Virus record (IMG/VR): IMGVR_UViG_3300025617_000018 | Location: 287 to 64,286 of that record | Length of the DNA stretch: 64,000 nucleotides | Reading direction: 5' to 3' (one strand) | DNA from: a virus | Lineage: Duplodnaviria > Caudoviricetes | Shown here: one piece after another, positions 59,818 through 63,359 of the stretch | Layout: every line of letters begins with the position of its first letter | Numbering within the stretch: position 1 is the first letter of the stretch | Notes under the pieces: generated by a model | Database searches by the model: none | What the model saw: the letters and a program-made list of their open reading frames with translations, nothing else | Told to the model about the DNA's origin: nothing | Program-made: the position numbers and the translations under genes

Positions 59818-60017
59818 GGTTTGAATTCTCCAAAAACATCTGGTGCTTGTTCTTCAGCTAGGTCCATGTAGTAGGTGCTAGGATAATGTTTCAAACAACG
59901 ATACGCCTGTTCTCGAATATACTTTGGAACTCGTGGAGTCTTACTAGGATCCATCAAATCTTTTAAAAACTGTTCTGTGTTAAGAACTGCGTGTTTGCGT
60001 TCAATAGGTAGTGTCAT
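59814..60017 (-). CDS. Small conserved phage protein
   Basis: MTLP.ER...TPRVP...LKHYP motif. Confidence 0.6.
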   Translation of the reverse strand: MTLPIERKHAVLNTEQFLKDLMDPSKTPRVPKYIREQAYRCLKHYPSTYYMDLAEEQAPDVFGEFKP

Positions 60018-60403
60018 TAGAACAACTCCTTCTCTGTTAATACTTTAAACTCATAGCCCATTTTGTTACAGTAGTCTTCTGCAGAACTCCACTTGGCTCG
60101 ATTCTTTTTATATTTACGCTGGAAGTGTGGTTTGATCTCTACAACAATGGTTCTGCCGTCGTAGGTCTTTACAACAAAGTCTGGGTAGTAGTTGTGCCAC
60201 TTATCATCGTCTTCGAAGTAATAAGGAATGTGTAGTTCTTCCGAACTCCACTGTACGATCTTGTCACTGCGGTCACAGTACAACATAAAACGTCTTTCCC
60301 ACATACTTCTGTAGGTGATGCGATTTATATTGCCTGCATACTTTGCAGGATATTGCGGCTTGTACTTGCCGCGGATTGCTGTTAATGCATTTGACTTTTT
60401 CAT
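60017..60403 (-). CDS. Head-completion nuclease-like protein (T4 gp4-like, PD-(D/E)XK)
   Basis: KYAG...YRSMWE...WSSEE...YYPDF...EIKP...KW..A. Confidence 0.75.
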   Translation of the reverse strand: MKKSNALTAIRGKYKPQYPAKYAGNINRITYRSMWERRFMLYCDRSDKIVQWSSEELHIPYYFEDDDKWHNYYPDFVVKTYDGRTIVVEIKPHFQRKYKKNRAKWSSAEDYCNKMGYEFKVLTEKELF

Positions 60404-60444
60404 ACTAACAGTATACTATATTTTTATACCGTGTCAACCGAAAA

Positions 60445-60528
60445 TGGAGTGAGCGACAGGACTTGAACCTGCATAGTCTTACGACACGGATTTGCAATCC
60501 GTTGCATAACCATTTCTGCCACGCTCAC
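60445..60528 (-). tRNA. tRNA-Cys(GCA) with extended variable arm
   Basis: Acceptor GTGAGCG/CGCTCAC, U73, CCA; anticodon arm ACGGA-TTGCAAA-TCCGT; V region GTC-GTAA-GAC-TAT. Confidence 0.9.
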
Positions 60529-60532
60529 ATAT

Positions 60533-60616
60533 TGGCACAGGGTGAGGGATTCGAACCCCCTGACTCTCGTCCTGGTTTTGGAGACCAGTGTGACACTCCA
60601 ACTTCACCGACCCTGC
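60533..60616 (-). tRNA. tRNA-Trp(CCA) with extended variable arm
   Basis: Acceptor GCAGGGT/ACCCTGT, G73, CCA; anticodon arm CTGGT-CTCCAAA-ACCAG; V region GAC-GAGA-GTC-A. Confidence 0.88.
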
Positions 60617-60627
60617 ATTGTCTTTAT

Positions 60628-60656
60628 ATAGTAAGTTCTTTTTTGAATGTTGTCAA
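60628..60656 (-). promoter_or_regulatory. Sigma70-type promoter for tRNA-Trp/tRNA-Cys
   Basis: TTGACA-17-TACTAT. Confidence 0.65.
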
Positions 60657-60663
60657 CCAGAAA

Positions 60664-60738
60664 TGGAGCGGCGAAGGAGAATCGAACTCCTATCCACAGG
60701 GTGGAAGCCTGTTATAATAGCCATTATACGACCGCCGC
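60664..60738 (-). tRNA. tRNA-Gly(TCC)
   Basis: Anticodon arm ACAGG-CTTCCAC-CCTGT; U73; CCA end. Confidence 0.92.
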
Positions 60739-60944
60739 TAAATTGCTATGCCTTCTAACAAGTTCCAACCGCCTGTAATACCGTGATCATTACCAGTCTT
60801 GATACAAACAGCATATGATCCAGTTTTATACTTACGGTTATAAGTTTCTAGGTACTTGTTACGCACGGCATAAGTGTAGTTTATGTTATCTGCTTCTCGT
60901 CTAATAGTTTTTCCATTAGACATTTCTACTTCAACCCAATACAT
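60738..60944 (-). CDS. Small hypothetical protein
   Basis: 68-aa ORF coupled to the upstream stop. Confidence 0.5.
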   Translation of the reverse strand: MYWVEVEMSNGKTIRREADNINYTYAVRNKYLETYNRKYKTGSYAVCIKTGNDHGITGGWNLLEGIAI

Positions 60945-61255
60945 TATATACTTTCACCTGGTTCAAAAAACTGGAAGTTTTGACCACTTGTAAATACGCA
61001 AGTAGTATTGTTGTCTTTGTTGACAACTAAAAAACTCCAAGTTTGTGTTTCCGTATTTACCCAAAGTGAATTATATAAAGGGCTGCTATTGCCTTGTGAT
61101 ATGCCCTCACTCAAAAAAACTAGTTCTTCATTGTACTTATTTTTAACAATATTCAGTACGTCTTGTGTTGGACCACACTGCACAGGTATTTCGTATGTTT
61201 TTGCTTTTACTGGTAGGACAATGAGCAAGAACAGTGCCAATACAATATATTTCAT
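60944..61255 (-). CDS. Secreted/periplasmic small protein
   Basis: Signal peptide MKYIVLALFLLIVLPVKA; two Cys. Confidence 0.65.
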   Translation of the reverse strand: MKYIVLALFLLIVLPVKAKTYEIPVQCGPTQDVLNIVKNKYNEELVFLSEGISQGNSSPLYNSLWVNTETQTWSFLVVNKDNNTTCVFTSGQNFQFFEPGESI

Positions 61256-61261
61256 TTTAAT

Positions 61262-61328
61262 CTCCCGTCGCGGGAGCAGTTTCAAGACTTACTCGGGTCC
61301 TACCTTTCCTGGGCACCACTTGCTTGAT
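61262..61328 (-). promoter_or_regulatory. Structured 5' leader with SD-sequestering hairpin (cis-regulatory candidate)
   Basis: CTCCCG-CGA-CGGGAG covers the SD; competing GAGTAAGT/ACTGCTC helix whose loop CTTGA matches upstream TCAAG. Confidence 0.45.
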
Positions 61329-61358
61329 TATTTTAAAAGAGAAACAAGACTCTTTAAA

Positions 61359-61435
61359 TGGTGCCGTTGAAGGGAGTCGAACCCCCAACCTTCTGGACCT
61401 AAACCAGACGCCTCTGCCAATTGGGCCACAACGGC
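61359..61435 (-). tRNA. tRNA-Leu(TAG) with short variable loop
   Basis: Acceptor GCCGTTG/CAACGGC, A73, CCA; anticodon arm TCTGG-TTTAGGT-CCAGA; V loop AGGTT (5 nt). Confidence 0.88.
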
Positions 61436-61452
61436 ATATATTGTATTTATAC

Positions 61453-61527
61453 TGGTGCTCACGGAGAGAATCGAACTCCCAATCTACGCATTACAAGTGC
61501 GTTGCCTTACCGTTGGGCCACGTGAGC
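61453..61527 (-). tRNA. tRNA-Thr(TGT)
   Basis: Anticodon arm ACGCA-CTTGTAA-TGCGT; CCA end. Confidence 0.92.
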
Positions 61528-61535
61528 ATACTATT

Positions 61536-61625
61536 TGGCGGAGATAGTAGGATTCGAACCTACGGAACGATTTCTCGTTCGACAAGTTAGCAACCTGCTG
61601 CTTTAAGCCACTCAGCCATATCTCC
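61536..61625 (-). tRNA. tRNA-Ser(GCT)
   Basis: GCAGG-TTGCTAA-CTTGT; long V arm; G73; CCA. Confidence 0.92.
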
Positions 61626-61677
61626 TTGTTCGGGACTGTCTTTCTGCTAGGCAAGGCGCAGTCATTCCGAATAAAAG

Positions 61678-61832
61678 TGGAGTGGGTGGAATAGGGTAAC
61701 CACCAAGGAAGTACTATCCGAAGTACCTTTCTTCACTAGACTTCCTACGTCCTGCACCTCGCTAAAGGACCGGCGCTACCGGCTTTCGGACTACCTTACC
61801 CCCCTTCGGCGAGAGGTATTCGGTCACACTCC
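61678..61832 (-). ncRNA. Unidentified structured RNA (~155 nt) ending in CCA
   Basis: GGAGTG/CACTCC closing stem, several internal helices, possible TCCGAA/TTCGGA pseudoknot; lies between tRNAs. Confidence 0.65.
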
Positions 61833-61856
61833 TTTTAGAGTCCGTCGACTCTAAAA
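61833..61856. other. Perfect 10-bp hairpin between tRNA-Asn and the ncRNA
   Basis: TTTTAGAGTC-CGTC-GACTCTAAAA. Confidence 0.7.
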
Positions 61857-61857
61857 C

Positions 61858-61938
61858 TGGCTCCCAAGGTTGGATTCGAACCAACATTGCTTTCGCACGG
61901 ATTAACAGTCCGCTGTATTACCTATCTACCACTTGGGA
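61858..61938 (-). tRNA. tRNA-Asn(GTT) with extended variable region
   Basis: Acceptor TCCCAAG/CTTGGGA (U1-A72), G73, CCA; GCGGA-CTGTTAA-TCCGT; V region GC-GAAA-GC-AAT. Confidence 0.9.
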
Positions 61939-61947
61939 ATAAAATTT

Positions 61948-62085
61948 ATTAAAAAGCACACTAGGTTTACTATCCTCTTGCTACCTATTGTTGCCCTGCT
62001 ATGCAGAACAGTTACTAGTATCATAGGCTCTCCGCTTTGGACAAGGTTCAGCTTGCGGCCTCACGAGCCTAGTATGCTTTTTAAT
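61948..62085 (-). ncRNA. Unidentified rod-like structured RNA (~138 nt)
   Basis: 18-bp closing stem ATTAAAAAGCATACTAGG/CCTAGTGTGCTTTTTAAT; internal helices; TAAGTA motif immediately upstream. Confidence 0.6.
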
Positions 62086-62089
62086 ATAC

Positions 62090-62680
62090 TTATTTCTGTC
62101 CTTCTACAACAATATTATATATTTCTTTCCAGTTGCGAACTCGTGTCACTCCACTGTATTCGCCCTGGTTGTGTTTGTGATCCATTAACAAGGATACCAA
62201 ACCTAAATCTCTTCCTACTAGTGCATTCTGTGGTTTGTCTTCGACCCAGTAGCAACCAGTATCTGCATACCATTCTAACACTTCGTCTTTGTCAGCACCT
62301 GTGTCTAGGTACACATATTTCTCAAATACACTATCTCCAAACATCTCACGCAGGTTCTTTGTGCGTAGGTGTTGCGAGTAGTCGTCGTTACTTAAACTTG
62401 TAATAGCATGGAACACATACCCGTGTTCACTGTGCAACTTCTTCACATAATGAATAGCATCTCGTAGTGGCGGAAGTTTACGAATCCAAGCACTTTCGTT
62501 GAACATACGAATAAGACGCATGCCTTCTACTTTTCCTAAACCATACTTGAGATCCATCAAGTATTCTGTTTCAAATCCTGGATTAACACTATAACCGTGT
62601 CGATTCATCCACTGTCCGAACGCATACTCCCAATCGAAGAGGACGCCGTCACAATCTACCAATATTGCCTTTTCTTTCAT
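62090..62680 (-). CDS. HAD-family 5'(3')-deoxyribonucleotidase-like phosphatase
   Basis: LVDCDGVL motif I, ITS motif II, K, VEDKPQN motif IV. Confidence 0.85.
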   Translation of the reverse strand: MKEKAILVDCDGVLFDWEYAFGQWMNRHGYSVNPGFETEYLMDLKYGLGKVEGMRLIRMFNESAWIRKLPPLRDAIHYVKKLHSEHGYVFHAITSLSNDDYSQHLRTKNLREMFGDSVFEKYVYLDTGADKDEVLEWYADTGCYWVEDKPQNALVGRDLGLVSLLMDHKHNQGEYSGVTRVRNWKEIYNIVVEGQK

Positions 62681-62710
62681 TAAGTGCCTTTCTTTATTGC
62701 CTATATTATT

Positions 62711-62739
62711 ATAGTACTATCTTATTCAGGTTTTGTCAA
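62711..62739 (-). promoter_or_regulatory. Sigma70-type promoter
   Basis: TTGACA-17-TACTAT. Confidence 0.65.
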
Positions 62740-62916
62740 GTACCAATAGTAATATTTTTTGCCTGTTTGTTCATCAACTGCTGGGAGAGCAATCTCGTCA
62801 GTTACTTCAGTTTTTTCAACACTCTCCCAGGTGTAACCCTGTTTAGTCTGTGTATCAACCATTTCAAAGAATTCCTTGTTTCCTTCAAAGAAAACAATAA
62901 GGAATAAAACCCACAT
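62722..62916 (-). CDS. Small hypothetical protein
   Basis: 64-aa ORF with hydrophobic N-terminus. Confidence 0.5.
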   Translation of the reverse strand: MWVLFLIVFFEGNKEFFEMVDTQTKQGYTWESVEKTEVTDEIALPAVDEQTGKKYYYWYLTKPE

Positions 62917-62918
62917 AC

Positions 62919-63359
62919 TTACCTTTTAAACCTTACAGTGAATTCTTGTCCACCGTCCCAGAATGTGATAGTTGAATGACTGTACACTCTTACCTGTTCT
63001 TCTTCGTAGCGTGTCTCACGCTGACATTGTGTGCGAACGCCGCCTTTAGCATCTGAATTTTGATTGCCAATAATGCCGCCTAGTACACCACCAATCTTTG
63101 CACCATCTTTGTGATCGATTTGATGTCCTACTACGCCGCCGATGATAGTACCGACAATAGTGTCTGCTGTACGATCACCACTTACAGCAACATCCTTACA
63201 CACTTCTACTGTGTAAGGTCTTTGCTTGATAACTGTTTTGTAATGATTTTCTGTTACGCCCATTACATTGTTTGATTCATCTGCAAATGCAAGTGCGCTG
63301 TAAAATCCTACACTACAACTTAAAACCACTGCGTGAAAAACTTTTTCTGCATATTTCAT
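62919..63359 (-). CDS. Glycine-zipper 2TM exported protein
   Basis: Signal peptide; GTIIGGVVGHQI...GAKIGGVLGGIIG. Confidence 0.8.
   Translation of the reverse strand: MKYAEKVFHAVVLSCSVGFYSALAFADESNNVMGVTENHYKTVIKQRPYTVEVCKDVAVSGDRTADTIVGTIIGGVVGHQIDHKDGAKIGGVLGGIIGNQNSDAKGGVRTQCQRETRYEEEQVRVYSHSTITFWDGGQEFTVRFKR

Follow-up and report, generated by a model that had tools for sequence, protein, structure and literature searches.

The locus considered here raises the question of what kind of RNA a giant phage encodes when a compact, G+C-rich fold interrupts its array of tRNA genes, and whether such an RNA acts as a free molecule or as the leader of a message. A preliminary description had regarded it as an unexplained, processed stable RNA of ~155 nt, perhaps a tRNA mimic or decoy, with a suspected resemblance to the manA motif and a comparison to the RNAs C and D of phage T4. 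The latter, rnaC and rnaD, are classic examples of stable small RNAs that originate in a tRNA operon.

Carrier phage and tRNA array

The window, i.e., the whole stretch of DNA analysed, comprises 64,000 nucleotides, nearly all of a 64,286-base IMG/VR record (IMGVR_UViG_3300025617_000018) to which CheckV assigns a completeness of 18%, which would put the complete phage genome at several hundred kilobases. Nearly all genes of the window lie on the minus strand, among them genes for proteins of the tail fibre and baseplate, for a DNA ligase, and for a ClpA-like ATPase whose best identity, 45.8%, is to jumbo phages of Acinetobacter, Sinorhizobium, and Pseudomonas, and the sequencing runs with near-identical DNA bear marine or seawater labels. 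The carrier is an uncultured marine giant phage.

Seven tRNA genes, all on the minus strand, form an array at the right end of the window (ARAGORN; Rfam). The RNA is located inside this array, as originally described, between the minus-strand tRNA-Asn upstream and tRNA-Ser, tRNA-Thr, and tRNA-Leu downstream (ARAGORN). The nearest upstream minus-strand sigma-70-like box (62739-62711) precedes a 196-aa ORF, and a terminator scan of 60300-62800 returned no terminator-like site on the minus strand, so that an intrinsic terminator 3′ of the RNA was rejected.

The array displays additional features, including (i) the tRNA-Asn gene itself, which shares ~81% identity, along 61 nt, with its counterpart in phiKZ-like Pseudomonas jumbo phages; (ii) a 128-aa ORF (60017-60403, minus strand) directly 3′ of the last tRNAs, with PHROG matches labelled head closure and endonuclease, the placement of which recalls the homing endonuclease segB within the T4 tRNA cluster; and (iii) an intergenic region (61939-62085, minus strand) between tRNA-Asn and the stop of the 196-aa ORF (62090-62680), comprising a ~100-nt fold with an 18-bp closing stem. 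This last fold has a minimum free energy of -45.7 kcal/mol (z -3.47; 0 of 200 shuffles as stable), is without an Rfam match at E up to 10 and without a look-alike among the loci of the relatives described below, and may represent a second structured RNA of the operon. RNA-library contigs of two runs, X6 and X11, contain a variant that skips 61982-62056, one side of which is anchored by 22 letters only.

Extent and fold of the RNA

The structured RNA gene is genuine and tightly folded, and spans about 182 nt of the minus strand (Table 1). The earlier extent of ~155 nt was too short: the 24-nt hairpin at 61833-61856, previously taken for a separate flanking hairpin upstream, is helix P1 of the same RNA, and the start consequently moves 24 nt in the 5′ direction. 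The composition and coding capacity agree with the first account, with a G+C content of 54-55% in the element vs 32-45% around it, and overlapping minus-strand ORFs limited to two trivial ones of 31 and 41 aa. The single-sequence minimum free energy is -59.4 kcal/mol vs -49.5 ± 4.1 kcal/mol in shuffles (z -2.4; 2 of 200 shuffles equally stable), and the plus-strand fold is weaker (z -1.6). These single-sequence statistics are modest; the relatives give the decisive support.

All six helices named in the preliminary description, GGAGUG/CACUCC, ACCUCUC/GGGGGGU, CCGG/CCGG, GUCC/GGAC, AGGAAGU/ACUUCCU, and GGUGG/CCACC, are present in the sequence and in its single-sequence fold and are kept through compensatory changes, five of them being recovered by RNAalifold on the 35 aligned sequences, GUCC/GGAC excepted. 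The CCA end reported at the same time consists of the two C that finish the closing stem and a single following A; in most relatives the corresponding letters are CCG followed by C, and the CCA of the window is therefore not a tRNA-like tail.

Table 1. Positions of the RNA, its structural elements, and the neighbouring tRNA genes in the window, listed in the 5′ to 3′ direction of the minus strand
Feature	Position	Strand	Basis or remark
tRNA-Asn (GUU)	61858-61938	minus	ARAGORN; Rfam tRNA 58.6 bits; encoded CCA at 61858-61860; 3′ end 1 nt before P1
Whole manA-type RNA	61675-61856	minus	Rfam model positions 1-192 of 192
P1, 5′ hairpin, 10 bp, UUUUAGAGUC-GACG-GACUCUAAAA	61833-61856	minus	Model alignment; covaries
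Core closed by P2	61679-61832	minus	Sequence, fold, alignment, covariation, RNAalifold
P2, GGAGUG with CACUCC	61827-61832 / 61679-61684	minus	
J2/3 block UGACCGAAUA	within core 61679-61832	minus	
P3	61811-61817 / 61798-61804	minus	
L3 loop GCCGAA	61805-61810	minus	CCGAA (61805-61809) pairs with UUCGG of L8
P4	61788-61791 / 61749-61752	minus	Encloses two hairpins, P5 and P6
P5	61770-61782	minus	UAGCG-type loop
P6	61757-61768	minus	UAGCG-type loop
P8	61740-61746 / 61706-61712	minus	
L8 GGUA	61724-61727	minus	Complementary to UACC in P9 loop, 61694-61697
L8 segment CUUCGG	61718-61723	minus	UUCGG (61718-61722) is the partner of L3
P9	61700-61704 / 61685-61689	minus	Abuts P2
U-rich single-stranded tail ACUUUUAUUC after P2	61669-61678	minus	GC(A)CUUUAUUUU conserved in relatives
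Spacer hairpin, motif GGAATGACTGCGC	61632-61668	minus	Between RNA and tRNA-Ser; 8 contigs including the window
tRNA-Ser (GCU)	61536-61625	minus	ARAGORN, Rfam; next downstream gene, same strand as RNA

Relationship to the manA family

The available part of Weinberg et al. 2010 (PMC2864571) presents manA as a riboswitch candidate of 5′ UTRs in marine phages and two gamma-proteobacteria, a description repeated in the accessible passages of later genome papers; the family (RF01745) was updated in Rfam 14.3 (PMC7779021). The portion of the 2010 alignment at hand (supplementary file 5, PMC2864571) displays three hairpins in a multibranch stem, with a pseudoknot GUGGUG/UUACCA between the first and third loops (SS_cons_1).

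In E-value mode over 61600-62150, RF01745 matches the element along its full length on the minus strand (51.5 bits, E 2.6e-12), which bears out the suspected resemblance, and a search of the whole record returns the same match in one copy. Because this score is lower than the gathering score of the family, 55.2 bits, the element escapes the standard scan, which at curated thresholds discloses the seven tRNAs only. When the scan is relaxed to E up to 10, manA is the only family over the element, the remaining rows being tRNA plus two chance-level hits, and the other candidates that the preliminary description had listed for an Rfam scan, namely tmRNA, RNase P, and Y RNA, give no match there. 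The same description had conceded that a strong Rfam hit would make the RNA known rather than novel; judged from sequence and alignment, the element belongs to the manA lineage as a reduced and divergent member, homologous over the full model, and is not an orphan.

The alignment to the consensus highlights the features shared with manA, including (i) the 5′ hairpin with its GACG loop and the closing stem; (ii) the GUGAC.GAAUA junction, and P3 followed by UAAGGU, with covarying helices and with both blocks invariant in 35 sequences, an invariance that is partly by construction since several invariant blocks were fixed by the search patterns; (iii) a multibranch domain; and (iv) the 3′ hairpins P8 and P9, both 100% paired, with compensatory changes at five of six and three of five pairs, respectively, and with no gap between P9 and the closing stem. 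The marine phage origin is also shared. In contrast, the multibranch domain of the element contains two hairpins with UAGCG-type loops instead of the three hairpins, with complementary first and third loops, seen in the accessible classical alignment, and its inner loops, UAGCG and UUAGCG, are not complementary to each other. Moreover, L8 carries GAAAGGUAC and L9 carries UUACCC, the position is not that of a 5′ UTR preceding a mannose/fructose, nucleotide, chaperone, or photosynthesis gene, and the element is carried not by a known cyanophage but by a giant phage whose ClpA-like gene is 45% identical to those of jumbo phages. Classical manA copies in cyanophage isolates are located after pstS and before a hypothetical gene in S-SSM4, before talC in P-TIM40, and, according to the GenBank record, directly before an annotated tRNA-Gly in S-SSM7. 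This last record is the one instance seen of a described manA copy next to a tRNA; the consulted passages of PMC2864571, PMC9964418, PMC10665884, and the 2026 preprint contain no mention of such copies.

A sub-family missed by routine annotation

Two pattern scans of IMG/VR delineate the group to which the element belongs. The first, with GTGACNGAATAN{8,38}GGTAAGGT, gave 58 loci, sorted by inspection into 16 closely window-like forms, 32 other manA-like forms, and 10 chance matches, and the second, with a 3′-half pattern, gave 42 loci, comprising 40 of the window type and two chance matches. Merged by contig, the sub-family comprises 41 contigs besides the window, one of which (L060) is cut within the RNA; the window core shares 63.5-75.6% identity with the other members. 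Each of the 20 relatives scanned in Rfam E-value mode matches manA at full length with 42.5-52.0 bits, all below 55.2 bits, which places the window in a coherent branch left unlabelled by routine annotation. The 16 scanned loci of other manA-like forms comprise 12 with 60.3-142.6 bits, three with 41.5-49.8 bits, and one without a hit, and four presumed chance loci gave no manA hit in this mode.

Three motifs of the sub-family were not found in the manA section of the 2010 alignment, where gap characters could hide them. A blastn search of 61600-62000 against 50,697 isolated-phage records left the element unmatched; the hits, in 18 phiKZ-like records, were confined to the tRNA-Asn portion. The pattern scan of one genome per prokaryote species disclosed 23 places, two of them real, which lie on contigs 652 and 1730 bases long that were assigned to metagenome-assembled genomes; on contigs so small, the bacterial copies provide no clue to the host. 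The sub-family escapes standard annotation, and the 42 collected instances could seed a model that recovers the branch.

Covariation and loop-loop pairing

The alignment, A1, comprises the window and 34 non-identical relatives over 198 columns, with a mean column identity of 84%; the scored structure was read off the sequences, and shuffles and 3′ partners slid by 1-3 columns served as controls. The 46 pairs, distributed in nine helices, are standard pairs in 96.8% of cases vs 85.0% in shuffles, with two-sided changes at 32 pairs, and none of 500 shuffles reaches the observed value on any of five measures; on sliding the partners, pairing falls to 42-55%. The 16 loci obtained with the 5′ pattern alone also carry the 3′ blocks. 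Without a supplied structure, RNAalifold finds 44 pairs in the 35 sequences, 26 of them compensatory, and recovers P1, P2, P3, both inner hairpins, P8, and P9; P1 shows two-sided changes at six of seven pairs. Covariation supports every helix, and the nine-helix architecture, comprising P1, P2, P3, the P4 domain with its two hairpins, P8, P9, and the L3-L8 pairing, is kept by compensatory changes.

The L3-L8 pairing, CCGAA/UUCGG (helix 4 of the alignment), is 100% paired in the 35 sequences with three of five pairs compensatory, the relatives displaying variants such as CUGAU/AUCAG, CAGAU/AUCUG, CUCAU/AUGAG, and CACAU/AUGUG; this covariation is compatible both with pairing within a molecule and with pairing between molecules, and cannot separate the two. 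The pseudoknot first put forward joined UUCGGA to UCCGAA at 61785-61790: the complementarity exists in the window, but it is not conserved (45.7% paired, equal to the 45.7% of shuffles), and the conserved partner of UUCGG is instead the CCGAA of L3. A second potential contact involves the invariant GAAAGGUAC of L8 and the UUACCC of L9, by way of the complementary GGUA and UACC; given its invariance, this complementarity lies outside what covariation can assess. The computed complementarity energies are -8.8 kcal/mol for L3/L8 and -3.9 kcal/mol for L8/L9. In the available classical manA sequences, L3 is complementary to the P8 internal loop too and the two change in step between groups, as seen by eye (GGAAU/AUUCC, GGCAU/AUGCC); the 2010 annotation does not mark this complementarity in the part at hand, which for the second pseudoknot line (SS_cons_2) extends to column 136.

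In the P8 loop, a short inner hairpin predicted from the single sequence is not conserved, and RNAalifold retains two pairs only in that loop. In the two inner hairpins of the P4 domain (61757-61782, minus strand), the UAGCG-type loops are nearly invariant and the stems covary freely in alignment A1. A search for a partner sequence of these loops found none, and a pairing of the L5/L6 loop UAGCG with CGCU of L3 was dropped since, by eye, L3 varies and the loops are unchanged.

Comparison with RNA cages and with the T4 stable RNAs

In the available text of their preprint, Ren et al. (bioRxiv 10.64898/2026.07.01.735769, 1 July 2026) report cryo-EM structures of manA RNAs as an icosahedral-like cage of 60 subunits and as decamers and octamers, assembled in vitro from pentamers through intermolecular kissing loops. 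The constructs comprise manA_A0F1, manA_67AA, manA_pho_A28C, manA_pho34_A767, and manA_6FAB, with interfaces that include (i) L5-L7′ and L8-L9′ in one construct and (ii) L6-P6′, L5-L7′, and L3-L8′ in another. As far as the available text extends, manA is treated as a 5′ UTR element, with no mention of tRNAs, phage biology, or function.

The helix numbers of the preprint were mapped by helix order in the published consensus, so that the loops of P3, P8, and P9 would correspond to L3, L8, and L9. Compared by the interfaces described in the accessible text, the reported L3-L8′ and L8-L9′ contacts find in the element the covarying L3-L8 pairing and the L8-L9 complementarity, whereas L5-L7′, an interface that the two described pentamers share, is without a counterpart; complementary L5/L7 loops are absent, and one published assembly interface is therefore missing. 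If the mapping holds, L3-L8 would be the intermolecular contact of one construct and L8/L9 that of the other. By analogy with these other manA RNAs, the two pairings would act between molecules and generate closed homo-oligomers, i.e., the RNA may assemble with itself by kissing-loop contacts.

ROOL and GOLLD, as covered in the consulted part of Kretsch et al. 2025 (PMC12286853), are cage RNAs encoded near phage tRNA islands. The likeness, on this account, comprises a phage origin, a frequent location near tRNA islands, and RNA-only closed assemblies; the differences comprise a size of 600-800+ nt and an unrelated sequence and fold, with no Rfam match to either family here. The T4 RNAs mentioned in the preliminary description resemble the element in position, rnaD lying 1 nt after tRNA-Arg and rnaC 6 nt further, both on the tRNA strand, but they are shorter, 119 and 139 nt, and the T4 region gave no manA hit at E up to 10. 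Kinship was rejected on that result, as judged through the manA model alone, and rnaC and rnaD are analogues in position only.

Genomic context and proposed release from the tRNA operon

A same-strand tRNA ends 30-32 nt before GTGAC, equivalent to 0-3 nt before P1, in 23 of 40 assessable contigs (ARAGORN), or in 20 of 34 when counted by distinct RNA sequence. These flush tRNAs, with encoded CCA, are tRNA-Asn, Arg, Cys, Thr, or Pro. An upstream tRNA at 48-102 nt is observed in four more contigs, and 13 of 40 relatives have no upstream tRNA within ~1.4 kb. The frequency of flush tRNAs in the sub-family, 58% of contigs, compares with three of 31 other manA copies of the first scan, the three representing one sequence type. 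On the downstream side, 13 of 42 instances have a tRNA beginning 9-52 nt past the closing stem; in six of these the U-rich tail alone intervenes, and the 3′ end of the RNA would there be fixed when RNase P cleaves the tRNA. No tRNA is found on the opposite strand in these loci.

Downstream of the RNA, the window contains ACUUUUAUUC, then the hairpin with GGAATGACTGCGC, then tRNA-Ser. The GGAATGACTGCGC hairpin occurs in eight contigs including the window, either after the RNA or between two tRNAs, which implies that the RNA fills a slot equivalent to that of a tRNA; from its distribution, the hairpin gives the impression of a spacer or processing signal used repeatedly in these tRNA arrays. Its sites comprise 61632-61668 (minus strand) in the window, 591-603 and 971-983 in L083, 1843-1855 in L066, and further ones in L060, L063, L069, L073, and L091. 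A blastn comparison of the upstream element and the spacer with the loci of the relatives found the spacer motif only. In L091, ~30-130 nt after the RNA and past the spacer hairpin, a sequence with tRNA-like acceptor and T-arm ends and extra bases mid-way, not called by ARAGORN, may be an interrupted or unusual tRNA.

Contigs of four metatranscriptome runs were compared with 60000-63000. Those of X6 cover 61601-61735, 61706-61820, and 61791-62047 with 0 differences, with upstream cover to 63000, and X11 provides a 216-nt contig (61606-61821), also with 0 differences. In the DNase-treated X19, a 175-nt contig joins tRNA-Ser (61536-61625) to 61673-61733, four other letters replacing the 47-nt spacer; this contig represents a relative whose RNA abuts the tRNA. 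The interval 60909-61413 is without cover in all four runs. The element is present in RNA-library assemblies of three studies, an observation that speaks to presence and not to ends, strand, or level, and DNA carry-over is possible.

The context fits the earlier idea of a processed stable RNA, the arrangement of the window, with a CCA-encoding tRNA 1 nt upstream and a tRNA downstream, recurring in its flush upstream half in the majority of assessable relatives. The RNA would be transcribed together with the tRNAs from an upstream promoter and freed by the tRNA-maturing enzymes, its 5′ end arising from the 3′-trailer cleavage of tRNA-Asn and its 3′ end from cleavage in the U-rich tail or spacer together with RNase P cleavage of the next tRNA; so released, it would act free and not as an mRNA leader. 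A free stable RNA from a tRNA operon, able to pair with copies of itself, is the most likely reading, with a riboswitch, a processing module, and a tRNA mimic less likely. In its full form, the element is probably the gene for a ~180-nt non-coding RNA of the manA lineage that is cut free from the tRNA operon and acts as a free RNA. Observations that count against this reading include the score below the gathering threshold, the missing assembly interface, the 13 of 40 relatives without an upstream tRNA, and, in about half of the sub-family, a leader-like arrangement of ribosome-binding site and ORF.

Alternative functions

This last arrangement bears on the view of manA as a cis-regulatory leader or riboswitch, in which the fold responds to a ligand or condition and thereby governs the genes that come next on the same transcript. 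About half of the sub-family displays a ribosome-binding site and an ATG/ORF 16-40 nt after the U-rich tail, which agrees with the riboswitch-candidate classification of Weinberg et al. (PMC2864571), in its available part, and of Rfam, with the cyanophage-isolate copies just before talC or a hypothetical gene, and with a -10-like box that, by eye, lies a few nt before P1 in classical copies. The downstream ORFs, however, belong to at least nine unrelated families with no common pathway, including a gp44-type clamp loader, a Gp2.5-like SSB, a methyltransferase, and small proteins without a family, and no sugar-metabolism gene is among the ORFs downstream of the sub-family RNA. The next genes in the window are three tRNAs, and the 13 relatives with a tRNA within 52 nt downstream resemble it in this respect; neither a conserved terminator nor an alternative fold sequestering the ribosome-binding site was found, in line with the minus-strand terminator scan of 60300-62800, and the accessible literature naming manA reports no ligand. 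A regulatory leader is unlikely on balance.

The RNA might instead serve the operon itself, as a processing or insulating module that marks cleavage sites or shields the 3′ end of a tRNA or the 5′ end of a message, and that has no function once released. Its flush position behind CCA-encoding tRNAs of five identities speaks for such a role, as do the U-rich single strand that follows and, in eight contigs, the spacer hairpin that also separates tRNAs. A nuclease barrier would nevertheless need far less than nine helices, a loop-loop pairing that covaries, and a large number of invariant loop nucleotides, and the fold is kept in classical manA copies without a nearby tRNA, which makes this role quite improbable.

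The proposal of a tRNA mimic or decoy, whereby the closing stem and adjoining hairpin imitate an acceptor/T-arm minihelix to engage tRNA enzymes or anticodon nucleases, draws on the location in a tRNA array and on the 3′ strand of P9 (5 bp) joining that of P2 (6 bp) without a spacer, as in the T and acceptor stems of tRNA, but is very improbable given a non-conserved CCA, a 10-nt P9 loop without T-loop sequence, a 10-nt junction strand, the lack of a cloverleaf, no match of the element to ARAGORN or to the Rfam tRNA, tmRNA, Y RNA, and RNase P models at E up to 10, and a kissing-loop assembly described without reference to tRNA in the available text of 10.64898/2026.07.01.735769. A tRNA-like domain was likewise rejected, ARAGORN finding nothing in 61626-61857 and Rfam giving manA only.

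Implications for the manA family

For sixteen years manA has been listed as a probable riboswitch without a known ligand, and the 2026 preprint describes RNA-only cages in vitro. The presence of a sub-family in the tRNA operons of giant phages other than cyanophages argues for a free RNA, and not an mRNA leader, in at least this branch. In addition, L3-L8 offers a concrete contact backed by covariation, and the placement of the RNA matches the tRNA-island position of ROOL and GOLLD. A bolder scenario, which we regard as possible though doubtful, is that manA became a tRNA-operon gene in this giant-phage lineage, released at roughly tRNA-like amounts, and that kissing loops formed by L3-L8 and L8-L9 build a closed shell acting on the translation apparatus or on anti-phage defence. 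If this were true, three unrelated cage-forming RNAs, manA together with ROOL and GOLLD, would reside in phage tRNA islands, a pattern that would suggest a common function tied to tRNA biology.
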